Origin: Haliotis cracherodii
Taxonomy: Eukaryota
Assembly (NCBI RefSeq): GCF_022045235.1
Contig: NW_027266265.1
Coordinates: 248,001-312,000, forward strand
Length of the DNA stretch: 64,000 nt
Direction of reading: 5' to 3'
The notes beneath the pieces were generated by a model that was given only the letters and a program-made list of their open reading frames with translations, did not search any database and was not told the origin of the DNA. The position numbers were made by a program, and so were the translations under genes. Shown here piece by piece: positions 4,254 to 40,685 of the stretch (its first letter is position 1; each line of letters starts with the position of its first letter).

Positions 4254-4430
4254 GGGGCGGTCGTGTAGCCTAGTGGTTAAAGCGTTCGCTTGTCACGCGG
4301 AATACCCGGGTTCGATTCCCCATTCCCCATTACAATATGTCAAGCCCCTTTTCTGCCCCCCATCCCCCCCCCAAACCCCACCCCACCGTGATAGTGCGGG
4401 AATATTGCTAAAACCATACTCACTCACTCC
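4254..4430 (+). mobile_element. tRNA(Asp)-derived SINE
   Basis: A-box TAGCCTAGTGGTTAAAGCG, anticodon arm CGCTTGTCACGCG, B-box GGGTTCGATTCCC, non-tRNA body, GGAATATTGCTAAAA tail and (CACT)n end. Confidence 0.85.
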
Positions 4431-16056: not shown

Positions 16057-16981
16057 GACGTGTCTATTCAGTATTTCGGCCGTGGCGCAGCAAACAGTTG
16101 AATGAACAAATAATGGTAGTGGTCACGTGACTGACAGGACATTTGCTAAATTACAACTCTTAGAAATCTTACAGGAAATGTGTTTGATAAAGACAGCTGC
16201 CACTACATCACATCATAGTATTTACATGATATAAGTAGAGTAAACTGTACATTACTTGGTGATTTACGTATGTATTGTCTAAATGTAGCATCTATTTCTT
16301 TCTTGGGTCAGCTAAGCTTCGCAGATAACAGAACATGGAACTCGCCTTCAATTAACCCATATTTACAACATGTACAAATATGATATGAATAGTCCATGTC
16401 TTTGTTCTTTCCTATGTGTATTTTTAGAACAAGGTATAGAGATTCTAAACTTACATTTCACGCGGAGATGGGATTTATCATTTAATGTTAAATATTTCCC
16501 AGGTTCAAACAGATTTAAAGGAAGCATGATGTGAAATAAAGCGAGGAGATTTAATACTTTCCCGCCGATCCCGAACGGAAATATCAACGAGTCTTTTTTT
16601 TAAAGGTAGAAACAACTGATAACTCCTCCCCAACATCTTGGGCAATCCAAAGAGGAAAAGCCACAAGAAAATAATAATATTCTGACATCGGATGCACCTG
16701 TATCTTTACCTCTATCATCTAAAGATACCAGCAATAGGCAACTCTGGTACGGATAACGACAATGTGATATACAAGCAAGTTTATTCCAATAGTAAATTAC
16801 TTTCATCTAGGTTTCCTCTATTATAGCCTTATTTGAAGCCAACTTTCCAACAGCAAGAAATCTTTAAAACATGAGCAGCAAGCGTTTTACAGGCCACTGA
16901 CCAATTTAACCGAGAGGAAAACATTAAAGCTACATATTTATGATAGGAAACAACTCTTATATTTACAAATATATACAGACC

Positions 16982-17250
16982 GACCCGTGAGGATCCGGGA
17001 TAGAATAGGTCTTCAGCAACCCATGCTTGCTGTAAAAGGCGACTATGCGTGTCGTAAGAGGCGGCTACTGGGATCGGGGGTCAGGCTCGCTGACTTGGTT
17101 GATGCAGGACATCGTATCCCAATTACGTGGGTCAATGCTCATGATGTCAATCACTAGATTGTCTGGTCCAAACTCGATTATATACAGACCGCCGTTATAT
17201 AGCTGGAATATTGCTGGGTGCACCGTTAAAAACAAACAAAAAAAACAAAA
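16982..17250 (+). mobile_element. Structured SINE-like element (family X), full length
   Basis: GACCCGTGAGGATCCGGG..GGCGACT..CTAGATTGTCTGGTCCA..GCTGGAATATTGCTG..(AAAC)n; matches about 13 other copies in the window. Confidence 0.9.
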
Positions 17251-17927
17251 AAACCCGAAACGATCACTTTTCCTTTTGTGCAACTATACCACCATTTCTA
17301 AATACAACTTTATTTTTTAAAAATGACAATGTCTAGAATAAGATCTAGCCCCAAGTGTCATAAAACTGCTGTAGAGCGCGCAGTTTCTTTTGTAGACCAT
17401 TCACTGTATAAGAAAACATAACTATATCATCAATAAATAAAAGTAAAAATAGATCCTTAATTCCTTGAATTACAAATATCCCATTACTACATTTGTCGAT
17501 GACATTCTTTAGTATGTAACATATATAAAAGCGTTTTCCTCTCTAAATGGTCGAATGTCACCTTATCGTCTATGAAGGCCCCGTGAAAACGGCCTACTCA
17601 CCTACAGAGATATTCAGATCACAGAGCTTTTTAAAACGATTTTCTAAAATGCTTGTAAATAGTTTACCCGAGATATCTATAAAAGAAATGTTTCTGTAGT
17701 TAGATTGTTCACTCAATTTACCGGATTTAAACAAAGGAACGACCATACCTATGTTCCATACTGTAGGGGATATATAATGCCGTGTTAAAATAGATCTCTC
17801 AAATAATAAGCTGGGAAAGCACCAAAAAATACCGCCTTCACCCGCCGCCTTGTTCTATTTTAACTCATTACTACACTTTAACACTTCTTCATCAGTAATA
17901 TCACAAGACAACATCTCCGAGCAGAAG

Positions 17928-18152
17928 GTTTTGGTTGATTGCACTCAACAATTTTCCAGCTATATGACGGCGGTCTGTAAATAATCGAGTCTGGACCAGA
18001 CAATCCAGTGATTAATATCGTGAGCATCGATCCACGCAAATGGGGTCGAAGACATGCATCAACCAAGTCAGCAGGCCTGACCACCCGATGCCGTTAGTCG
18101 CCTTGTACGACAAGCATAGTCGCCTTTTACGGCAAGCATGGGTTGCTGAAGA
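17928..18152 (-). mobile_element. Family X SINE-like copy, 5' truncated
   Basis: Reverse complement of the family X body. Confidence 0.9.
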
Positions 18153-19061
18153 AATATCTTATCCACTGTTACAGATGTTAGAATTACTATAATTATATAC
18201 TGTTGTATCGAAGCTAGACAGTAATATTTTGTCTTTACAATTTCATTCCTTATAGTAACCAGACCATTGTTGAGGCCTTATATAGCATCGTCCCTCCCCT
18301 AGATTTTGACATATAGGCTTGAGAGCGCTCCAGAATGATTTGCAGTCTGATTTCATTGCCGCTTCCATAATATCCTCTGCCTCATCAAATTCATAATTTT
18401 CACTATTTAACTGGCAAACGAGGTTTTATTCCCAGGGGAAGGGTTTTAAATATCATAAGACCCCGAGGACTTATCTAACTTATAAACAGAGAAAAAGAAT
18501 CTTAAAACAACATTTATCAACAGTTTTATGTTCCAAATATATATACTTTCCATTTACCTTAGGAAAAAGGCGTAAAATATCTGTTGCTGGCGTACGGTTC
18601 TTGAAAAAGGCATTGTAAAACGCATTGTGATTTATCGACGCCTCTGTGGCCTGGTGGTACACTCACTGAGCTACAGACACAAAGGCTGCTTGTCCGATCC
18701 TCGGGACATGTTATGGGACTCAGAACCCAACCACATAGGTTTTGCTTTTACCGTGGAATGGAATGGAGGCCTCTGATTGCTCCTTTAAATCCCCTATTTC
18801 ATATAATCTTCAGATGAAAAACAGAAGATTATGTCTTCCAATGCGATTGCAGAGGTACGTTTGGGTACTCATGTTGACATTATCATACGACTGCGGGGGG
18901 TATTTAATTCCCCATAGGACAGTTCTAGTTAGCTTATGGCTAGTTATAAAGGCATATGTGACGTATTGCCATCAGTCTTTGTATGGCGTGCGTCATCCGT
19001 CATGCGACATCTATTTACAATCTAATACGATTTATTCAAAAATATTTTGAAAGATAGCACT

Positions 19062-19290
19062 TATAGCTCACCTGGTACGAAGTCCCGCGGTGGGCTCATG
19101 GCGCTCCATCCGTCGAAAGTCATCAACATTAACTAAAACAAATATCTTCTCTTATCCTACCCGGTAAGTTTAACCAAACATCGCAGGAAGTTTCCACAAG
19201 GAGTGCCTGGGCGGGCCAAATGGATTTCAATGACTACAAAATATTTAAATAACATTTCCACTAATATATGCATTCTATCGTAATAAAAGC
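19062..19290 (+). mobile_element. Helentron-associated (HINE/pearl-like) non-autonomous element fragment
   Basis: AGCTCACC..GGTGGGCT subterminal hairpin, then a CCATCCGTCG microsatellite remnant and an ATCTTCTC..AACCAAAC core typical of these elements. Confidence 0.5.
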
Positions 19291-19857
19291 GGTCATAGAG
19301 ATGGAGTATTGCTGAGTTTACAGCGTTAAACAACACACAAACAAAAATATTGTAATAAAAAATAACTGTTCATGGTTATTTTTTACTCGACACGGTACTT
19401 GTGAAACCGACGGGGTTTTTAAAACAAAAACATCATTGTATTCGAATTCCTGTCGTTTTTAATAATATAAATCTGGTGTATGCTTAACTGTCATAAGCGT
19501 GATACTGCTTCAAAGTGTCCATTATTTTATGCCCAAAACTCTGTTAATGAACTATTCTAACAAACCACCACCATCTACGACTTGGTCTGGCCTGCTCCAA
19601 ACTGACGCCACCGAAAAGTCGCATCCACTGAAGCAGTTGTAGGTTCACGGGCATTGTGGTCGAGTTTCCATAACACATATACATATTAAACGAAATAACT
19701 ACATCTGAATCAACCAGAGTCCTCCTTTCCGTCGCTGTGGTATTAGGATAGTAATGGAAAAGAGGTTGCCTTGTAAAGTATCGTGAGATAACCAATAAGT
19801 TGGATAGAAATCGGTTATAAAGCTCAGGGGTCATAACTCTTTCATGAATGTCCGATA

Positions 19858-20125
19858 AGTTGGTTGGTTGATTTTTTGTTTAACGCCGCACTGAGCAATA
19901 TTACAGCTATGACGGCGGTCTGTAAATAATCGAGTCTGGGCCAGACAATCCAGTGATTAATATCATGAGCATCGATCCACGCAATTAGGATCGATGACAT
20001 GCATCAACCAAGTCAGCTAGTCTGACCACCCGATCCCGTTAGTCGCCTTTTACGACAAACATAGTCACCTTTTACGGCAAGCATGGGTTGCTGAAGACCT
20101 ATTCTAACCCGGAATCTTCACGGGC
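19858..20125 (-). mobile_element. Family X SINE-like copy, full length
   Basis: Reverse complement of the family consensus with a (CCAA)n tail. Confidence 0.9.
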
Positions 20126-20309
20126 TAAATCTACAAAGGGAACGTCATATCGTTGATTGTGACGCAAAATATATGAAAAAGCTCTCTGTTGTCCACAAAA
20201 TCTTAAAATACATTCCCTTTAAATCTACAAAGGGAGTGTATTTTAAGATTTTGTGGACAACAGAGAGCTCTTTTTCATATATTTTGCGTCACAATGAACG
20301 ATATGACGT
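20126..20309. repeat. ~80-bp-arm near-perfect palindrome with a 16-bp direct repeat
   Basis: Arms 20142-20220 and 20229-20309 (2 substitutions plus one 2-nt indel), 8-nt spacer. TAAATCTACAAAGGGA at 20126 and 20220. Confidence 0.95.
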
Positions 20310-21599
20310 CATAATAGTGACGTGCGTAAATGGCAACATTTGAAACCTCGCGGTGCGCGTTCGGTTCCAAGTTTAATTTAGCGCGGTTAAATCTACAGGT
20401 AACCTAGAGGTACACTGAAATCACAGTATGTTTGTCTCCTAATTCCTAATTCTCTCTGTTGATTTCTATCGTGTTTTCTGTATGAAATGTATTGCCACAC
20501 ATCCTTTAAATATTGTAGTAACCGCAACATTGCATTCTGAAACCTATAATTGTAGATATATTTATTTAAATATGCTTACCGACAATGACTAAAAGTACTA
20601 TTCTATGAATATTAGCTTCCATGGTAATCTGGTCGTCAAATCGTCCGTTTCAACTAGAGGAGGTTCATCCTATTACATCTGCTTGACCAAACAGAATCGA
20701 GTAATTTCCAAATTAATGGTAGAATGATTAATACCCATAGTGTAATTTATTGCGTGGAAAAATATGTGAAACTTAAAACTTAATTCACCTCAAAGAAATT
20801 ACCAAATATGTAAAACAATGTTTGGCTTACGTTATGGACATCACCCGGCCTATCGTGACCGACGTTTACAAAATGACGTGTTCACTAACAACAGTACTCG
20901 GGGTTCTCAGAGGAAGATTTTCGTTGATTCAGGGTTCGAATATATACATATAAGTGTCAGGTAAATAATCAGAAACCACGACCATTTGTCATTTGATTCT
21001 AACATGCCAGAGGAATTCAGCTATTTATGTATCGCATCGGGGCATGAAGATGTATTTTGTAAACACTATCCAATCTGGTGGAAATGAATACACAATGCCA
21101 TTTAGAAAGTGGTCAAATGTAACAAATGTTATATTTGGGATAACGCTTCCTTAGGAAAGTACAAATTCTAGTACTGTTTATGGTTAAGTCCCAACCGAGA
21201 TTCGACTCGTAGAGTGAGGCACACGAAGTCAGCGATCTAACCCACTTAGACACCGAGGCTTTCACAAAAAATAAAATATGTAATATGAAAAATGAAGTAA
21301 TATGTCAATAATGGCGAGATTTCCGATGTACCTAATTTTCAGAGTTCGTGTTCAGTAATTTTGTTTTGTCTAAAAAGGTAAAATATACAATTTACGTTCG
21401 ATATAACACGTAGTCCAGCCAGCAATGTTCCAGAAAACGGGACAAAAGTTGAAATGTTGTGTACAGGGGAAGACCAGAAGATTACACGATCAGTTCATCA
21501 AAACAAAAATAAAAATAAAGTCAACCTTTCCTTCTTTCACAAACTGCGAATATCTTACTAAAACAGACACTGTATCCTAACTTGTGCAAACAATTTGAA

Positions 21600-22220
21600 A
21601 TATTGAATTTGTTTAAAGTTTAATTTTTAGAAAGCATTAGGAAGCCTTTTGGGCCCATCTTCAGACAAAGTAAACATCCTGTATATATTCAAAGACAGGA
21701 GACGAACACACCATAATGATACATAAGAACATGATCATCGTTTCTTTTATCTTTGAGTATACATCGTTTGGGTTCAGTGGTTGTCGTTGACATGAAACAA
21801 AGAATTAATTCTTTTTAAGCATATGCATGAGAATATATCGATCATAATTACAAGCTGCTTTGTTCCAAGTGCAGGAGATGCACAATGTACGATCAAATAA
21901 TTGTCTAAGTTTCCAATATTACTTGAACGTACTACAGGAAAACGTTTGACGAGTCTTACTTCAGTTTATAACTATAACCGAACTTTAGAAACTGAGAGAT
22001 GGAGACAAATAGCTTAACACCGAAAGAAAGTGTCCACTTTGCAAACTATCTAACGTAGGTGATGAATTCCATTCTTTCTTTCCTTCTGCATATTCAAAAC
22101 CCCCGAAAGAAAACACTGTTTTACACAGACTTCACTACATTAGACCAAATATGTATACAAAGGACTTGCTTTTCAATAATCCACGACATTGAGAAAAGTT
22201 CCCAAATTGTGTTACCTCAG
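21600..22220 (+). pseudogene. RTE-X-like LINE 3' fragment
   Basis: LETERW..ERKCPLCKLSNVGDEFH (~21985-22075). Confidence 0.6.
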
Positions 22221-22389
22221 TGAATCTGTATATCTATCAGACATTCAGTAGGAAAAACTGTATTAAATACTTCTATCAAAATTAGAGTAGTAGATGCTAT
22301 CTTATCGATTATGGTCTGAATATATGTGGAGCGATCTGATGGGGGATTAGATTTTTTACATTGTCATCAAATTCCTGTCCTTTTTTTAA

Positions 22390-22900
22390 CAAAGAGGGAG
22401 TAACTGTTGTTTTACACAGGCAGCCTCAGGTCCACCAATGGCTGTTGGCCTTTGTTATCATCCAAGCCATCGAAGCAGGGTGGGGAAGCAGCCATAAAAT
22501 GTCACACATCACTCCACAAGAGGATCAATGACCAGCAAAGGGTTTCCATAGAGTACACATACACCAAAGTGTCTCCCGGCCCTTCCCCTAAACATCCAAG
22601 TGTCTCGCCAGAAACATCCATGAAAACTCACATCAGCGCACTGACTCGTTTATTAATTTATGAACACTGTAACATGCGTGTGGCATTGCAAAGTTTTATT
22701 ACTGACAAGACCAACATCTGTGTTCATGAGGAGATCCGATCATCTGCTGGAAGCGTCTTTCAGGAATGGGTGTCGTGAAGTCTGTATCAATGAATTATAG
22801 GAAAAATTATGTTTCTGTAATCAATTACATGTTGATGAGAAAGTATAACAAAAAACCTCCTCCAGAATTTGTTCATCAACAGTTGCTAAAGTGATCTGTG
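22390..22900 (-). pseudogene. Possible piggyBac-like transposase C-terminal relic
   Basis: KFWRRF..YFLINM and a decayed Cys-rich ..PCF tail, with multiple frameshifts. Confidence 0.25.
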
Positions 22901-22979
22901 AAAACCTGTTAAAGGCGCTAGAATCTTTTATGATAAATAAATATGAAATGAATATAATCTTAAACTTTGTGATAATGGC

Positions 22980-23480
22980 AATCAATTTTTGACTGAGTTT
23001 AATTGGAAAAAATATATATACTGTTTATAGATGTAAACTGAAGCATGTAAAACTTTTAGATTTTCAATACAGATACATGGAATTATCCACACAAAGAAGG
23101 AACTATTAACAATGAATCTTGTAGACGTTATTGTATGTAGCTTTTGTAATGCTTTCAATGAGGACATCGGCCATGTCTTTTGGAAATGTAATGAAACAAT
23201 TGATCTCGAACTTTGGCTTAATAATTACCTTTCACAAAAAATAAATTGACAAAATATGTTATTTGGCGTGGTTCCAACTACTTTAATACTTTAATCAATC
23301 ATACACTTACATTGGGGAAAAAGGCTTGTCTCTGGCTTCAAAGGAATCAAACGGAAAATAGATATACTTAAACACGTATTTTCAATCGAAAAATGTATTG
23401 CTATAAAAAATTATGACAAAATTAACTTTAACAAAAAATGGTCAATTATATTCTCAGCATTTGATTCTTAACTCTCTGTT
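22980..23480 (+). pseudogene. Tx1/L1 ORF2 C-terminal fragment
   Basis: FRFSIQIHGIIHTK and CSFCNAFNEDIGHVFWKC. Confidence 0.7.
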
Positions 23481-23689
23481 GATACATGCTATGGCTGGGT
23501 CTGATTGTCTGTTATGGTTTGACGGAATACTGTATTACTCCACACCTCAGGGAACAAAAACAGATTTTGAAATTAAAAGAAAAATAGAAAACTCGGCCAA
23601 CAAGGCGGACGGAAGTAACGAACAGGGTTGAATTTCCCTCCATACACTCTATAGGGAGATACCAAACAAGCGCGATGCTCAAACAGATC

Positions 23690-24015
23690 TGAAAAGAGAC
23701 ATGCATGCTACAACGGAAACCGTTTCAAATAGTCGTTTATCCAGCCTTGAAGGTGAGATGCTAGAGGAATACGAGTTCAAAACCTACATTGAGGACTACC
23801 ATAGACGCGGACGGCCATCGACGTCACCTCTAACTAAACCTCGACCTATCATCGCCAGGTTTTATTTAGGTCAACGAGGCTCCATATGCTAATTGAAGCA
23901 TGAAAAATTCTGATGGAAGATCTTTTTGTGTCAGAGAAGATCTTCCAAATAGGACCTCGAGGACAAAAACACTCCTATGGCACAGGCTTGGCAGGACAAG
24001 AAGAAAGTTCGGTTT
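23690..24015 (+). pseudogene. LINE ORF1-like fragment
   Basis: HRRGR..KPRPIIARF motif, similar to 8319..8633. Confidence 0.45.
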
Positions 24016-24103
24016 ATCAAGGGTTGTTCACAAACTGGATTCAGTACCGGCCGTAATGGGACAATCCTCGTGACTGCATGGAATAAGGGGCTATACTTGA
24101 TGG

Positions 24104-24294
24104 GACCCGTGAAGATCCGGGGTAGAATAGGTCTTCAGCAACCCATGTTTGCCGTAAAAGGCGACTATGCTTCTCGTGAAAGGCGACTAACGGGATCGGG
24201 TGGTCAGGCGCGCTGACTTGGTTGATGCATGTCATTGATCCCAATAGCGGGGATCGATGCTCATGATGTCAATTACTGGATTGTCTGGTCCAGA
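24104..24294 (+). mobile_element. Family X SINE-like copy, 3' part replaced
   Basis: Matches the family from GACCCGTG to GTCTGGTCCAGA. Confidence 0.9.
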
Positions 24295-24612
24295 GAGTTT
24301 TTTTCATATATTTTGCGTCACAATGAACGATATGACGTTCCCTTTGTAGATTTAGCCCGTGAAGATTCCGGGTTAGAATAGGTATTCAGCAACCCATGCT
24401 TGCCGTAAAAGGTGACTATGTTTGTCGTAAAAGGCGACTAACGGGATCGGGGAGTCAGACTAGCTGACTTGGTTGATGCATGTCATCGATCCTAATTGCG
24501 TGGATCGATGCCCATGGTATTAATCACTGGATTGTCTGGTCCAGACTCGATTATTTACAGATCGCCGTCATATTGCTGATTGCGGCGTTAAACAACAAAC
24601 CATCCAACCAAC
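24291..24612 (+). repeat. Inverted duplicate of 19860-20190 (family X copy plus ~65 nt of its 5' flank)
   Basis: Shares the flank ..TATGACGTTCCCTTTGTAGATTTAG and the variants GACTAGCTGAC, GATCCTAATTG and TATTAATCAC. Confidence 0.9.
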
Positions 24613-24850
24613 TATACTTGAAAATACAAGAAACAGACATAAAATCACTGTACTGGCCAAAGCTTTTCTTTTGTTGTTTTTCGCTGTTCCCTCATATTGA
24701 CATGTAGATGTTTCGCTCACATAAGAGGCAAAGTTGTTTTTGTTAAAATTAGGTGTTTTCATTGGTCTCCAGAATGTACAAAATAAAATTATATACTTGT
24801 ATTATTTGAGACCAGAAATTATATGCTTATTAATTTCTGAGCTGAAAAAA

Positions 24851-25268
24851 GTCGAGTTTGGACCAGACAATCCAGTGTTTGACATCATGAGCATCGATCC
24901 ACGCAGTTGGGATTGGATGACATACATCAACTAAGTCAGCGAGCCTGACCACCCGGCAGGCATTGGTTGCAGAAGACCTATTTTTATGTCTATGTATTTA
25001 TGTTTTTTCAAAATGATCAATCATTTGTGTGCGTTGCATGTTTGTTGTTGAAAGCTGCACTCAGCAATATTACAGCTATATGACGGCGATCTCTAAATAA
25101 TCTAGTGTGGACTAAACAAGCCAGTGATTGACATCAAGAGCATCTATCTACGCAATTGTGATATGAGTACACGCATCAACCAAGTCAGCGAGCCTGACCA
25201 CCTAATTCCGTTAGTCGCCTTTTACAAGCGTTGCTAAAGACCTATTCTAACCCGGATCTTCACGGGAC
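24851..25268 (-). mobile_element. Two family X SINE-like copies (partial 24851-24985; near full 25040-25268)
   Basis: Reverse-complement matches to the family X body. Confidence 0.85.
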
Positions 25269-26509
25269 CAGAAATTGGGTGCTGGATTATTGACTGTAAT
25301 ATTTTATGGCTGACTAAGCTTTGAGTATAAGCTTTATGCCCCTAATCAGTTAAATACACTAAGCTGAAACGTTCACGTTAGGGTCTTAGCAGAAGAAATG
25401 AACTTGCCTAGCTTGTTTCCATTTGTCTGATGCTCTATTTTCGTACACATTTGTGATTAATTTTAATCCCAAAAATAACAATTATTACATTTGACAACTT
25501 TCTAAATGGGACTGTGTGTTCATGTTGCACCTAATTGTTGGAAATGAATAATCAATATTTAGCAGATGGGAAACAAATTTGACATATTTTAAATATTTTT
25601 TGTCAAAAGTTATGAATAAAGTGTGCCAATCCACATAGAGATTGAGAATGGATTAAATATAATATAATACAGATCACAAAGAATATTCTAAAAAGAGAAT
25701 TTTGGAGAGTAATAACTATGAACGAGCAATGATTGACAATTTTAGACAGCCAGATGTTGGATAACAGGAATGATAACTTAGAACAGCAATAAGGTTTGAG
25801 AAGGGGGAAAAGAGAACAAATAAGTTTTACCGTTTAGAAAAAGCACATTCGAGGAGATAAAAAATTAAGGATTGTAACAGCAAATAATGAAGTAATTACC
25901 GATGAAAAAAGAATGTTACAACAATTAGAAATGGTTATGAAGATTTATATTCACGGAAGATAGGCCCCTAGAATCTGATTTTGATTTTAAAAAATTGGGG
26001 GTTGAAGAAAAAAATTCAGAAAGAATCATTTGAAGAGGACGTAGCAGCACAAGAACTGTAACCAAGCTTGATGCAAATGACAAGTAACAAAATCTCCTGG
26101 GTGTGATGCCATGCCAACAGAGTTCTATCAGCAATTCTGGCATTAAGTGCCTTGTATGAGAAGTTTACAGTATACACTTCAAACAGGAACTATGCCACTA
26201 TCTCAGTAGCGTGGAATAATGACATTGTTGGATATACAAGGCAATGATCCTTTGCTATTTGAGAACGCCAAAAACTGTACGTAATATGAATTACAAGAAA
26301 ACATTGATGCAGAGCATTAAAGTTCCCCGCCATATGTGATGCCTCCCAAACGCATAATTATGATGTTACTGAAAGGCATGATGGAGCATAATTATATATA
26401 CCAAAAATAAATAACACAACGCTGTTGTGGAAATTTTTAAAAATTTATTTTGAGTATTGGGCAATACAGTTGATACATTTGCATAGGGTAGGTCTATTTA
26501 AAAATAGTT

Positions 26510-26732
26510 TCTTGTTTAACGCCGCACTAAGCAGTATTCCAGCCATATAACGGCGGTCTGTAAATAATCAAGTGCGGACCAGATCATCCAGTGATTGACA
26601 CCAAGAGCATCGAACTACGCAATTTCAATATGATGTTATGCATCGACCAAATCGGCGAGCCTGACTACACAATCCTGTTCGTCGCCTTTTACGGCAAGCA
26701 TCGGTTGCTGAAGACCTATTCTAACCTCGGAC
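26510..26732 (-). mobile_element. Family X SINE-like copy
   Basis: Reverse-complement match; diverged. Confidence 0.85.
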
Positions 26733-27206
26733 TTTCTTTAAAAAGTAGATCTAAGGAAATGGAAGCAATTTCTGGCACAAATGTAAACATGTGAAAATAG
26801 TATCAACACTGCCAACAACATTGGCAGATGCATAAACTCAAATAATAGACCACATTCTTATTACACTTGGCATTTGGTTATAATAAAATACTAAGGGCTC
26901 CATATGGCAAAAAAGTCATAATAGACTTTTTGTCACAACCACAGATGCACATACTCAAAATATTATCACGTAGTTGGAGAACATTTCAATACCAGGACTA
27001 ATCAATAACGGAGATTCCTCGTCTCTTGTTTTACGTTTTTTGGTCAGTTTCCTTTTTGTATTTCTTTCTTTCAAAGAATAGTAATTGTGATCATGATGAG
27101 TTGAGTTACTTGTTTTTTACTATGTACTGTTTTTTATCCAGTGTCAATAACTGTTGTGGAATGTGGTTTACTTGTAACAATGACTGGTTTGAGTTCATAT
27201 GATGAT

Positions 27207-27393
27207 GATTGATTGGTTTGTCGTTTAACGCCGCACTCAGCAATATCCCAGCTATATGACGGCGTTCTGTAAATAATCGAGTCTGGACCAGACAATCCAG
27301 TGCCTAATATCATGAGCATCGAATCAACGCAATTGGGATCGATGCCATGCATCAACCAAAGCCTGGCTATCCGATCCCGTTTGTCGCCTCTTA
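27207..27393 (-). mobile_element. Family X SINE-like copy, 5' truncated, inserted at the end of the DUB-like relic
   Basis: Reverse-complement match. It supplies the spurious C-terminus of ORF 27134..27790. Confidence 0.9.
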
Positions 27394-27960
27394 CTGTTAA
27401 GATGTAACATAACAATTCATCCATACTACTTAACAGAAGTAAAACCGCTTGTCCATTCGGATCAATCTGACCCAAACCATTCCGCTGATGAGAGTCAAAT
27501 AATGAATACGGATCAAAATCCGTACAAATTGCAATGGAGACATCATTAAAAGTTACCAAAAGTGACGGGAATATCAGTATTGCTTTTAGAAACGATTCTA
27601 TGAAATTTGTTTTCCCTGCATCAATATTTGGAGCACCTGTGACGGAACCATAAAACTGATTATGACCCAAATACCCCTCATAGCCTTCGGTGTTAACTAT
27701 GTGACTGTAGAGAGCTGTGCCTTCATCGAACAGATTATCGAGGTCAGTTGAACACGGTACAGACGCAAATAGATTTGAGCCATGGGACACAAAATATATG
27801 AGTGACCAGAGCTACGGCTGTAAATTGAATTCCATTAAACTGTTGAAAAATACTACAGCCTTGATGCAAATTCGCCGACACACTACTCCGATTTTGCTTT
27901 GACTTTGCTACCAAACGTTTCACATGTGGCTATGTGCGGTGCACTGATTAAAAACACCGG
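27394..27960 (-). pseudogene. Herpes-tegument-like (peptidase C76/VTD) deubiquitinase relic, probably Helitron/Helentron-derived
   Basis: DLDNLFDEGTALY..YSLFDSHQRNGLGQIDPNGQAVLL..SMDELLCYI. The upstream decayed FG..E*CV may be the catalytic QC motif. Confidence 0.65.
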
Positions 27961-32390: not shown

Positions 32391-33254
32391 TGTGAGGATT
32401 TGGATAAAGTTTTGGTCGTAAAATGGATTGAATAATTTACTAAACATTGACATAGTTGAGGTCCTGATTTAACTTATGGATTGTGGCCGCTCACAGTATG
32501 TCAGTGCAATGTCTGATGGCGACTGACGGAGAGGTTTGTGCCACATATACGACGTGCCGTCCTGCACTGTGACTAGAACAGTCGGGTGTTGTGAATATAA
32601 CCTGCATACAGCCATTACTGCATGCATTGTTAGGAATACTTTTAGGCGTGTTTTGATTTTCAACGAGCCCTGATTTTATAGTGTTATGCATGTTCGAAAT
32701 CACCTCTCAGGCTACAAGGCATAAGAAACTGAAACTGTGTATGAATGATATGGTCTCTCTAAAACATACTCACCGAATTCCGACTCGACTTTAACCATGA
32801 CTGCCATTATTTCAACAGAGCTTTAGCGCCTTCTTCCAATTGAAATTACTTGCAAATATGATAAACAAATAATTATTCGTTGTTGCGAAAAAAGTAACAT
32901 GTTAGGTTCAAAGAAACAAATGTTACAATTGTTAATGGCGTCTGTATTTTTTCATAATGTGCACAAACTTCGGCATATCATCTTGGTCAGCGTCTACGAG
33001 GTTACCGTTAATCTCATGTCGCACGGGGGCTAGGAATGCATGCCGCACGTGCGGCACGAGCAAAGACAGTTGTAACCCTGCAAGCTTACTGGTTTGATAA
33101 GAAATTCTCAACAACAGTTACTGTGACCATTTCAATGTATTAATAACTGCGCTGTATATTCACTATGACTTTATGGTTTTACCAAATGATCAATCATCTG
33201 TGTACATAACAAACTGTTTGCTAAAACTGATAATTTCGCCTGATGTTGCAGTTT

Positions 33255-33722
33255 TTTTGTTTGTTTGTTTGTTTAACGCCGCACTCATCAATATTCCAGC
33301 TACATGGCGGTGGTCTGTAAATAATCGAATCTGGACCAGACAACACAGTGATTGACGTCATGAGCATCTATATACGCAATTGTGATACCACCTGATCCCG
33401 TTAGTCGCCTCGTACGAGAGGGATGGTTCACTGAAGACCAATTCTAACTCGCATCATTACGGGTCTGGTTGGTTGGTTGGTTTGTTGTTTAACGCCGCAG
33501 CTGTATGACGGCGGTGTGTAAATAATCGAATATGGACCAGACAATCCAGTGATTGATATCATGAGCATCGATCCACGCAATTGGGACCGATGACATGCAT
33601 CAACCAAGTCAGCGAGCCTGACCCCCCGATCCCGTTAGCCGCCTTTTACGACAAGCATAGTCACCTTTTACGGCACGCATGGGTTGCTGAAGACCTATTC
33701 AACCCCGGAATCTTCACGGGAT
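33255..33722 (-). mobile_element. Two tandem family X SINE-like copies (33255-33465 internally deleted; 33467-33722 full)
   Basis: Reverse-complement matches, each with a (AAAC)/(CCAA)n tail. Confidence 0.9.
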
Positions 33723-34845: not shown

Positions 34846-35006
34846 CCGCCTCCGTGCTCTAGTGGATAGAGCGTCTGCCTGGAGATCGGAAGGTTGTTTA
34901 TTCAATCCCCAAGACATGGCGACTAACGGGATCGGGTGGTCAGGCTCACTGATTTGATTGATCAATCAACCAATCAACCAAGCAATCAATCAAGCAATCA
35001 ATCAAT
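34846..35006 (+). mobile_element. Chimeric fragment: tRNA-like SINE head joined to the family X middle segment, then (CAAT)n
   Basis: CTAGTGGATAGAGCG A-box and TTCAATCCCC B-box remnant, followed by GGCGACTAACGGGATCGGGTGGTCAGGCTC. Confidence 0.6.
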
Positions 35007-37775: not shown

Positions 37776-37905
37776 AATCCAATTGCGTAGATCGATGCTC
37801 ATGATGTCCATCACTGGATTGTCTGGTCCAGACTCATGTATATACAGGCCTCAGTCAAATAGCTGGAATATTGCTGAGTGCGGCGTTAATCAACAAACAA
37901 ACAAA
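37776..37905 (+). mobile_element. Family X SINE-like 3' half
   Basis: CCAATTGCGTAGATCGATGCTC..GCTGAGTGCGGCGTTAA(CAAA)n. Confidence 0.85.
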
Positions 37906-38199
37906 GAAACCAAGAAACCAAGGCATGGTAAAGTCGGTACTTGTCCTATACCTGCCGGAAGTCAGTATAATGTCCATGCTTGCATGCGTGCGTGCTTGCG
38001 TGCGCGAGTGCGTGTGGTGTGTGTGTGTGTGTGTGTACTTAAGGTATATAGTACTCAAGTGAGTAGGTAAGTAATTCGTGTCACAGGACATGATATAATA
38101 GCCCTATATCAATCTATATCGTGGCAGTCTGTACGTTACTCTGTACACGCCAGCCCAGAGGTCAACAGTGTGAGTGTCGCCGCAAACCGAGGCCACGAG

Positions 38200-38500: not shown

Positions 38501-40429
38501 GAACATTGCTTGGCATTATGGAAGACAGCTCAGATTCAAAATTCTATAGTAAAAACACACCCAGGTTGTCACATCGTCTACAATCAAAGGTGTGTGGATG
38601 GTGTCCTTGGCTGAACTAAGGTTTGTTGACCATGTTAATAACCCTTCTGTAGACAGACCTGTTGTGCAGTCTGTGAGGCAGTGGATGCATTACGTGTCGA
38701 CTTTAGAGACGGACCCAATTTCCAGTTTGAGTGAACTGGGATTGTATTGCGAATGTAAAACCGAGCCATCAGTTACCTCAACACCTGATACAATTTACAA
38801 TCATTGCTATGTATCTCATTGTATGTCTATATTTACAAAATTAGAAGATTTTAAATAATCATTGTATTCAATGAACTGTTCGCATAAAATCCTAGATTGT
38901 TTTTGTTTTGTTTTGAAAGAAACATATTCTTGCTCTGCGTCCTAAGGGAAAGACCATGTCGAGATATGTGTTAAGACATAATGATTTTCTAAGGCATTAT
39001 CAATGACAGACCTGAGGTTTTGGAAGATATTATAGGGTGAACATGGAGCTGATGCAAGTAATGGTAGCTACTGTGAGACGGTTACTGGAGAACAAGTTAG
39101 CCGTGACTAGCTTGTACGTTCGAGTACAACCGACCCCAGACGCAAACGGTTGTTACTTCGACATATGCCACTCATAACTACCAAACCATCTCAATGCTGT
39201 AATAGATGAGGCGTCAGACGTGCAGGGATTCTTGCTGGTGAGGCGGCCTCGGAAAAAAAACCATGTGTATGGCCCAATGTATTCAGTTTGATTTGAATTG
39301 ATCAGGGAAAGTGTAAATCTAAATTTGTAGGGAGAAAAGCCAAGTTGAGGATGGACGAGGTGGGCACCGTGCATAAATGGAGATAACTCCCGTTGTGTTA
39401 GAATAGAGCTGCTCTCTGCTGGACCTTTAGCAGACAAGTATATAGACAATGCTGAAGGATATAAAATCAGCAGACAACGAGCACAATAGGACTGCCATGG
39501 TGGTTTTTGCCCGATGATATGGATAGTGCCCGCCCAAACCACGCTATCAGCCAGGCCAGGTCACGTTTAGAATATCCTGATTTCACTGAAGTGTTAGATC
39601 AGTGTGATCTTATTGGTATACAAGAAACTAAATCTGACGAATACGATGATATCCAGATAGACGGGTTTAAACTATATATCCAACATAGGCAGAATTGTGT
39701 ACGGCGTTCAGGAGGAATATGACTTGGATATAGTTGATGTATTAGTTGATCTCAATGTACCATACATCCGATGTACAAAATATGAGACTATTATCAGTAT
39801 TTATGCCTATAAAATGTTATGTTTATTTGTCTGTAATGGACGCATTGGAAATGATAAATCGCAAGGTGGGCCATTTTGAAATTGATGAATTTTCACCATA
39901 ATATTCAGATTACATTGTCCTGGTAATAACACGCTAGGTGGACCTCAAAATCCTATATACTACTACTAAATTCCGGTATTTCTTCTAACTAGGGCGGAAC
40001 GGCAAGGGCGCCCCATGTGTTGCTATTAACAAATCAGTGTCAGACACTGGGTACGCATGAGCAAATGCAGCATGTTCCACGCCCGGCAGAAGGGGAAACC
40101 CTAAACAAAGTTGCGACAATAGACGGTTGTTTGGTCCTGAATGTAAACTAATGCGAAAATGTTATACAAAAGTTAGAAAACGATTGGAAAGGAAATGAAA
40201 GTGTAATAAATATATTACACTATAGAAATTGCGCGAAAACATAGAACAAATGTTTTAATATTTTTTTACAAAACATGAGAATGCAGTTAGTGTGAAACAT
40301 TTTGAGACTATAGACATAGGCAGCTACTAATATGATAACCTAAATGCTGAAATCACGATACAAGAAGTTAGACAGACAGTGAAATCAGTGACACGTAATG
40401 AAGCAAGAGGTCTCGATTACATAGAAAAC

Positions 40430-40685
40430 GACCCGTGAAGATCCGGGCTAGAATAGGTCTACAGCAACCCATGCTTGAGGTAAAAGGCGACTATGCTTGT
40501 CGTAAAAGGCGACGAACGGGATCGGGTGGCCAGGCTCGCTGACTTGGTTGATGCATGTCTTTGGTCCTAATTGCGTGGATCGATGCTCGTGATGTCAATC
40601 ACTGGATTGTCTGGTCCAGACTCGATTATGTACATACTGCCTTCATATAGCTGGAATATTAGCGTTAAACAACAAACAAACAACG
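40430..40685 (+). mobile_element. Family X SINE-like copy inserted in the RTE-X RT region
   Basis: Full consensus match. AACGAC is duplicated at 40427-40432 and 40682-40687, and removing the copy restores GLDYIENDY. Confidence 0.9.

Follow-up and report, generated by a model that had tools for sequence, protein, structure and literature searches.

The window, the whole 64,000-nucleotide stretch of Haliotis cracherodii DNA analyzed here, carries a SINE on both strands. Nineteen BLAST pieces merge into 15 copies, 14 of them within 16,982-40,681, close to the roughly 14 copies, mostly between 17 and 41 kb, that an earlier sequence-only reading of this DNA had counted. A model of the element's head, built from 18 sequences, detects 10 heads in the window. 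The copies are listed with the evidence for each.

16982..17255, + strand: full-length copy under study, with head, body, Nimb-type tail and A/C-rich end (sequence, BLAST)
17940..18164, - strand: 5' truncated copy (BLAST, head model)
19863..20126, - strand: full-length copy (BLAST, head model)
24104..24294, + strand: copy with intact head, 3' part absent (BLAST, head model)
24354..24605, + strand: full-length copy (BLAST, head model)
24845..24982, - strand: fragment (BLAST)
25032..25268, - strand: copy with a single hairpin unit (BLAST, head model)
26507..26731, - strand: diverged copy (BLAST, head model)
27213..27394, - strand: 5' truncated copy (BLAST)
33251..33465, - strand: copy with an internal deletion (BLAST, head model)
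33475..33722, - strand: full-length copy that landed at the neighboring copy's 5' end (TSD search, head model)
34918..34962, + strand: fragment (BLAST)
37779..37917, + strand: 5' truncated copy (BLAST)
40430..40683, + strand: full-length copy (BLAST, head model)
63055..63151, - strand: diverged fragment (BLAST)

Forty 10-kb stretches of the host genome (400 kb), chosen regardless of content, held 104 SINE pieces, 77 of them at least 100 bp long. The window's density of 0.23 copies per kb is therefore ordinary, and the window is not unusually rich in the element. Extrapolation from the 400-kb sample gives roughly 2x10^5 copies genome-wide. A 16-letter word from the head has 19,829 exact matches in the 1.18-Gb host genome, and its reversed control has none.

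At 33,251-33,722 (- strand) two copies are nested, and the target duplication of the inserted copy takes in the first bases of its neighbor's head. A near-perfect 74-nt hairpin (20,188-20,261) flanked by 48-bp inverted repeats belongs to a MITE-like element at 20,127-20,310, to which 24,291-24,353 is related. The SINE copies at 19,863-20,126 and 24,354-24,605 have a common 5' flank, about 65 nt of this MITE-like element, so that a SINE-in-MITE unit was probably duplicated. Just upstream of the copy under study, positions 16,969-16,982 match 12-13 nt within the 3' part of that copy (17,180-17,191), perhaps as a template-switch scar or through insertion into an older copy; the TSD search found none at this copy. 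A tRNA-like match at 4,259-4,328 (+ strand, 33.8 bits) with a poor acceptor stem probably represents a tRNA-derived SINE's head.

The copy at 16,982, which has GACCCGTGAGG at its head, is laid out as follows.

16984..16999, + strand: pseudoknot 1, 5' half, with S1 5' strand 16984-16987, single-U loop 16988, S2 5' strand 16989-16995 and S1 3' strand 16996-16999 (sequence, covariation)
17000..17014, + strand: loop 3 and S2 3' strand, with the loop's conserved final AGAATA at 17002-17007 and the S2 3' strand at 17008-17014 (covariation)
17015..17027, + strand: pseudoknot 2, in which P3 pairs 17015-17017 with 17025-17027 and encloses the PK2 5' strand CCCAT at 17020-17024 (covariation)
17029..17072, + strand: conserved hairpin GTCG-TAARAGG-CGAC and PK2 3' strand (sequence)
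17078..17170, + strand: family-specific body with three predicted hairpins (fold of the copy at 24104)
17187..17255, + strand: 3' tail akin to the tail of host RNase-H-bearing LINEs, then an (AAAC)n-type repeat (alignment)

In this copy the conserved hairpin is present as two 22-nt tandem units (17029-17043 and 17051-17065), followed by the PK2 3' strand GGG at 17070-17072. The unit is doubled in the main SINE subfamily (window 17,024-17,067 and most host copies) and single in older SINE subfamilies, LINEs and viruses. Both sides of the hairpin are invariant in an unfitted alignment; as to its register, GUCG/CGAC suits the variant at locus L295, and GYC/GGC suits the host's first unit and locus L214. 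The core words of the hairpin (window 17,051-17,065) resemble the stretch of small-subunit rRNA where helix 44 ends, which may be coincidence. Downstream of the head, all three hairpins that had been proposed by eye (GTCAG/CTGAC, CTGGA/TCCAG and one more) appear in the predicted fold of the body, computed on the copy at 24104 (z = -2.3).

The sharp 5' start described in the sequence-only reading is borne out: 8 of the 15 window copies begin at element positions 1-3, and 30 of the 80 body-containing copies in the 400-kb sample begin at positions 1-7; starts peak again at positions 60-69 (13 copies). GACCCGTGAAG occurs exactly at two places in the window and with at most one mismatch at four (0.46 expected). 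TSDs abut G1 directly in 17 of 24 TSD-bearing copies (46 examined, a sample enriched for intact heads) and in 6 of 10 such copies among 27 unselected full-length ones. The first letter of full-length copies varies, being G in 16 of 27, and neither TSD sample (46 and 27 copies) has an excess of an extra untemplated G at the junction. The (AAAC)/(CCAA) tails are present as described earlier. The TSD-like AACGAC at 40427/40682 is weak: the initial three bases of the element itself make up half of it, and the TSD search found none there.

Four copies were scanned with A and B box consensus patterns and for T4 runs. No Pol III signal was found in them apart from one loose B-like match, at position 149 in three of the four, and to this extent the earlier statement that A/B boxes are absent holds. 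From locus to locus, the sequences upstream of G1 are unrelated; together with the TSDs that abut G1, this means that no tRNA or 5S head upstream of GACCCG, which the sequence-only reading had named as a danger to its proposal, was missed. A tRNA-, 5S- or 7SL-headed SINE was rejected on the unrelated flanks, the TSDs at G1 and the lack of Pol III boxes in the four copies scanned. The element is a SINE without a Pol III promoter, likely mobilized by a LINE, as had been suggested.

The SINE itself is likely already known, in keeping with the earlier guess that the repeat had been catalogued. The available text of Matetovici 2016 (PMC4758252) describes Haliotis LP-SINEs (Hdi_LP/Hmi_LP) of 255 bp; their initial ~70 bp correspond to the 5' ends of three LINEs, Nimb-17_LMi, I-3_DR and RTE-9_CPB. 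It proposes that this 5' domain is a promoter, notes the analogy with a trypanosome promoter/ribozyme, and places a related 5' domain before tRNA heads as well. Our repeat has the same size (about 255 bp), variable flanking TSDs, a short tandem-repeat tail, neither tRNA head nor Pol III boxes, and a ~70-bp LINE-derived 5' domain. A head of the Nimb-17_LMi type is indicated by the heads of the host LINEs and by a core and layout like those of the scallop 'Nimb-17 homology' block (compared by eye), which has the same AGAAT loop and TCGTAAGAGGCGACTAA core as the SINE head (PMC4758252, Supp. Fig. S2); in that scallop alignment the core words are kept and the stem letters differ. The repeat is thus likely the Haliotis LP-SINE, a comparison made through the published description and the alignment of the scallop relative rather than the LP-SINE consensus. 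Unlike the present analysis, the available text of that paper proposes a promoter and describes no head fold, viral copies or upstream ribozyme, and by what means the LP-SINE, lacking a Pol III promoter, acquires an exact 5' end was a question left open in 2016. We found no description of the head fold, the viral copies or the ribozyme-then-knot LINE head in the open-access literature; subscription papers, Repbase and Dfam lay outside this search.

Comparative evidence indicates that the SINE head (~70 nt) is a conserved RNA structure of two tandem pseudoknots with four helices, referred to below as the knot. In the first domain, an H-type pseudoknot, S1 pairs positions 3-6 with 15-18 and S2 pairs 8-14 with 27-33; a single U makes up one loop, and AGAAUW closes off another. 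The second comprises P3 (at least 3 bp) and PK2 (4-6 bp), with the conserved hairpin in the PK2 loop and PK2 closed by the letters that follow GACUAA. Covariation, the check that the sequence-only reading had called for, was assessed on 26 representatives picked by eye and parsed by script, from which single host copies in a degraded state and clusters that have insertions beside the anchors were excluded; seven of the 26 were parsed in the wrong register, as judged by eye, and were retained in the counts. Across the 26 lineages, each of the four helices forms more pairs with its true partner strand than it does after partners are shuffled: 86/104 against 64.8 for S1, 156/182 against 123.2 for S2 and 67/78 against 46.1 for P3 (each reached in 0 of 20,000 shuffles), and 111/130 against 96.3 for PK2 (1 of 20,000), these shuffle counts not being probabilities since partner shuffles ignore relatedness. 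After related families were dropped (20 lineages), each helix stood at 0 of 10,000 shuffles. In the seven viral sequences alone, S1 was matched in 22, S2 in 2 and P3 in 47 of 10,000 shuffles, and PK2 was not significant (1,353 of 10,000). An unfitted MAFFT alignment has double changes in 6 of 6 S2 pairs and 2 of 3 P3 pairs, with a covariation score of 0.497 against 0.191 (0 of 500); S1 and PK2 are misaligned there and were not counted. PK2 is broken at two loci, L118 and L121.

The pseudoknotted head seen by the sequence-only reading is thus supported, as a predicted double pseudoknot with covarying helices, and two of its four proposed pairings are at chance. GAAGATC with GGTCTTC holds. For CCCGT with ACGGG and GGGTT with AACCC the strands were correctly recognized and the partners were swapped: these pairings score 73/104 against 71.7 shuffled and 73/104 against 72.6, so that the proposed closing stem and loop pseudoknot were rejected. 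Repeat families begin at S1 with 2, about 66 or about 130-140 extra nucleotides in loop 3, so the 5' end follows the structure and not the spacing. About 20 unpaired or invariant letters are common to viral and mollusc heads; their conservation is partly built into the search patterns, and the LINE copies found by protein homology provide the independent check. Such sharing fits a factor-binding or catalytic core no less than the exonuclease block proposed below.

No Rfam family matches the head (window at the gathering score; 16,900-27,500 and six viral loci at E<=10), in agreement with the earlier view that it lies outside the known ribozyme families. Within the same scope, the twister, twister-sister, pistol, hatchet, hammerhead and hairpin ribozyme models gave no match. 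An HDV-like ribozyme was likewise rejected for the SINE head, which has its covarying helices in another order, no P3/L3 core and no Rfam match.

Relatives were found with an exact pattern of the conserved core. The whole head architecture is present in seven viral contigs, representing six distinct RNA-virus-type sequences. Four of these encode an RNA-dependent RNA polymerase, which is tombus-like (RdRP_3) in three and toti-like (RdRP_4) in one; two are known by capsid domains only (S-domain; peptidase A21). All six have the element in coding-strand orientation, 7 to ~125 nt past the last stop codon, and two of the six carry it in tandem. Looser patterns added one true viral carrier, L295; the other new matches were chance (at most 29 bits, against at least 45 for carriers under the head model built from 18 sequences), and the same model gives a host LINE outside its training set 68 bits. 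Separately, a contig of a large DNA virus (MSV199, Bro-N and NAD-dependent ligase genes) has the element at L118:9,978-10,059, between two same-strand ORFs, with the first knot intact and the second broken.

A metagenome scan returned at least 122 stretches with the conserved core. Among the matches listed, 139 over all loci, there are 34 clusters, mostly eukaryotic repeats that start at the element. In the metagenome repeats L190, L202 and L255 the element stands directly before a tRNA-like segment, by eye as in scallop MESC SINEs. Prokaryote genomes gave 30 pattern matches, 7 of them with the full architecture. A bacterial origin was rejected: the seven, in assemblies L274, L282, L283, L286, L265, L275 and L279, are surrounded by low-complexity or repeat-like letters or lie in a LINE, and we interpret these head-bearing repeats and LINEs as contaminants from eukaryotes; ten other prokaryote matches run against the head model scored below 20 bits or were unlisted. 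A complete two-ORF LINE with the head, L421, also lies in a prokaryote assembly and is likely host contamination. No TSD was found at its 5' end, so it is unusable as an example of a LINE starting at the knot. An element common to mollusc and other retroelements and to the 3' UTRs of tombus-like, toti-like and tetra-like viruses points to an exchange of RNA modules among viruses and transposons.

One carrier has a downstream gag-like ORF, and its protein, used as a query, led to a host LINE family. The related gag-like ORF1 has a weak zinc knuckle and ORF2 has the order APE-RT-RNase H; on sequence grounds the family is likely a member of the I superfamily's Nimb clade. Its tail aligns with the SINE tail over ~60 nt. 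Earlier partner candidates from an RNase H search were discarded as other LINE families, in which the head is absent and the tail different. The knot is present in 24 of 25 host LINE loci found by protein homology, a search free of nucleotide pattern bias, and in these LINEs a predicted HDV-like ribozyme begins 57 nt upstream of it. This ribozyme has a G1-U wobble in a 7-bp P1, P2, P3, P1.1 and the C in J4/2, and aligns end to end with Rfam RF02682 at 27.5-29 bits, under the 44-bit gathering score. The available part of PMC5786205 does not list Nimb or I among the clades with HDV-like ribozymes.

Among the first 30 of 608 matches to the knot sequence, loci chosen by that sequence alone, the ribozyme lies upstream in all 30 and none begins at the knot, which puts the share of knot-starting copies under about 10%. 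All ribozyme pairing checks are passed by 27 of the 30, and of 16 LINE copies whose tail was located, 14 have TSDs that meet G1 of the ribozyme, consistent with self-cleavage of the predicted ribozyme before G1. The host genome holds 787 exact ribozyme-to-knot junctions. Within LINE copies the knot is intact (S1 149/150, S2 174/180 and P3 89/90 pairs).

We propose, with moderate confidence, that the head is a passive block to 5'->3' exoribonucleases, similar to the xrRNAs of viruses. We arrive at this predicted function by elimination: a ribozyme, a promoter or a reverse-transcriptase stop within the knot would yield copies starting there, and the absence of such copies among 30 LINE loci argues against a self-cleaving head, an internal promoter and a reverse-transcriptase stop alike. 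A passive block would give no knot-starting LINE copies where a ribozyme protects the 5' end, and exact starts where decay frees the SINE from read-through transcripts. The covarying helices, a 5' end that tracks S1, and the position and tandem copies in viral 3' UTRs speak for it as well. In this hypothesis, SINE RNA would be made by read-through from host promoters, Xrn-type decay would trim it back to the base of S1 and so fix the SINE start, and the protein of the I-superfamily (likely Nimb) LINE would recognize the shared tail and copy the RNA to its trimmed end. The LINE ribozyme would leave an RNA with a 5'-OH that is not trimmed, so that LINE copies would retain the ribozyme, and viral RNAs would be cut back by the knot to a short 3'-coterminal RNA. 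The retention of the knot in LINE copies, where it is intact and none of 30 copies derives from an RNA trimmed to it, is not accounted for by exonuclease blocking by itself. As it stays intact inside the LINE RNA, it likely has a second role, in translation or RNP assembly, with cap-independent translation as the leading candidate.

Known xrRNAs depend on pseudoknots and often occur in tandem in 3' UTRs (available text of PMC8374639), and those of plant viruses stop Xrn1 at the base of the first helix (available text of PMC12397905). The knot resembles xrRNA classes 1-3 (flavivirus 1 and 2; plant-virus 3) in being a compact pseudoknot shortly past the last stop codon in viral 3' UTRs, in its tandem copies, in its spread over unrelated virus families and in an RNA that starts where the first helix has its base; in the SINE, a pseudoknot-dependent fold supported by covariation lies at the 5' end, at S1. 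It differs from the known classes, as compared by descriptions and Rfam, in secondary structure, being an H-type pseudoknot followed by a second one with an inserted hairpin. Knots of the SINE type are also mostly found in host retroelements, and their resistance is a prediction; the hallmarks of xrRNAs are an Xrn1 block in vitro without proteins and a 15-16 nt ring around the 5' end. More tentatively still, the head may be a new xrRNA class, the first to be at home in animal genomes, in very many copies, and to be exchanged among retroelements and several families of RNA viruses, and the element a third SINE design, with no promoter and no ribozyme and a 5' end cut from host transcripts by decay enzymes. 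An exonuclease block, if true, would explain the precise start of LP-SINEs and supply a cellular xrRNA. The available text of the 2021 review had xrRNAs characterized in viruses only and cellular ones expected (PMC8374639).

The main alternative, rather unlikely and named also in the sequence-only reading (a translation structure), is that the knot mainly serves as a cap-independent translation element that binds an initiation factor or the ribosome. Uncapped viral RNAs and ribozyme-released LINE RNAs would use it for translation, and the SINE would sit on ribosomes near new ORF2 protein, the bound complex incidentally setting the 5' end. The LINE RNAs with an intact knot are predicted to be uncapped after HDV-like cleavage, three viral carriers are tombus-like (RdRP_3), and the hairpin of 17-19 nt, itself strongly conserved, is reminiscent of a conserved 17-mer in 3' enhancers of the BTE class. 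Plant members of the tombus-like group use 3' UTR enhancers (available text of PMC5712577). The 3' CITEs of Tombusviridae (BTE, PTE) share with the knot a 3' UTR site in tombus-like genomes and a short, highly conserved hairpin; the knot differs in having no Rfam sequence or fold match at the six viral loci and, in four viral genomes, no 5'-3' kissing signal above controls, and in being common to retroelements. For 4 of 4 viral genomes, complementarity of the element to the 5' end reaches 5-7 nt at best, within the range of control windows, for contigs whose 5' ends are possibly incomplete. Scanning from the knot would moreover miss ORF1 of the LINE, which starts 440-690 nt downstream behind 8-14 upstream ATGs, and a precise SINE start needs an extra step. 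The ATGs and the weak 5'-3' pairing tell against the idea in its simplest form. A translation element would still be an undescribed motif of uncapped LINE and viral RNAs.

The sequence-only reading had favored a new class of self-cleaving ribozyme, here cutting just 5' of S1, or else a promoter, and both are weakened by the LINE copies. We consider a ribozyme very unlikely, its attractions being the double pseudoknot with a conserved unpaired core and no Rfam match, the TSDs directly at the SINE's G1, and an RCNRA after the hairpin that resembles the J4/2 strand of the HDV consensus. HDV-like ribozymes of R2, RTE and L1Tc/Pr77 do set an exact 5' start where no Pol III promoter is present (available texts of PMC3383444 and PMC5786205), and ribozymes exist in linear toti- and tombus-like genomes, where those in the available text of PMC13725137 lie in 5' UTRs or are paired. 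The SINE head, however, has neither the nested P1/P2/P3/L3 layout nor the P3/L3/P1.1 core of HDV, and it coexists with a canonical HDV-like ribozyme that heads the host LINE and is kept complete upstream of an internal knot at which no copy begins. The variable first letter of the SINE also counts against cleavage, which in a viral 3' UTR would remove the replication end. Equally, we find it improbable that the head is an internal Pol II promoter acting at the DNA level with a secondary RNA fold, despite its 5'-end position in several LINEs and SINEs and before tRNA heads (available text of PMC4758252) and the dual promoter/ribozyme precedent of trypanosome Pr77 (available text of PMC3383444). 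The stem letters change in compensating pairs, the conserved block lies at distances from the 5' end that differ by over 100 nt, LINE copies do not begin at the knot, and RNA viruses without a DNA stage carry the element in their 3' UTRs. A LINE reverse transcriptase can copy the cap and so give an extra G, of which the SINE junctions have no excess. A promoter or a cleavage activity that operates in the SINE could be hidden in the LINE by the ribozyme upstream.

The host genome contains a young I-superfamily (likely Nimb) LINE family of ~6.1 kb headed by a compact HDV-like ribozyme (for example L323-L342; C7:1947000-1955500 and others), and many of its copies are clustered at C2:20.8-21.75 Mb. 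Tandem arrays of the SINE head alone occur at C1:4,975,494-4,975,821, with a period of ~52 nt, and at C1:621,894-622,389.
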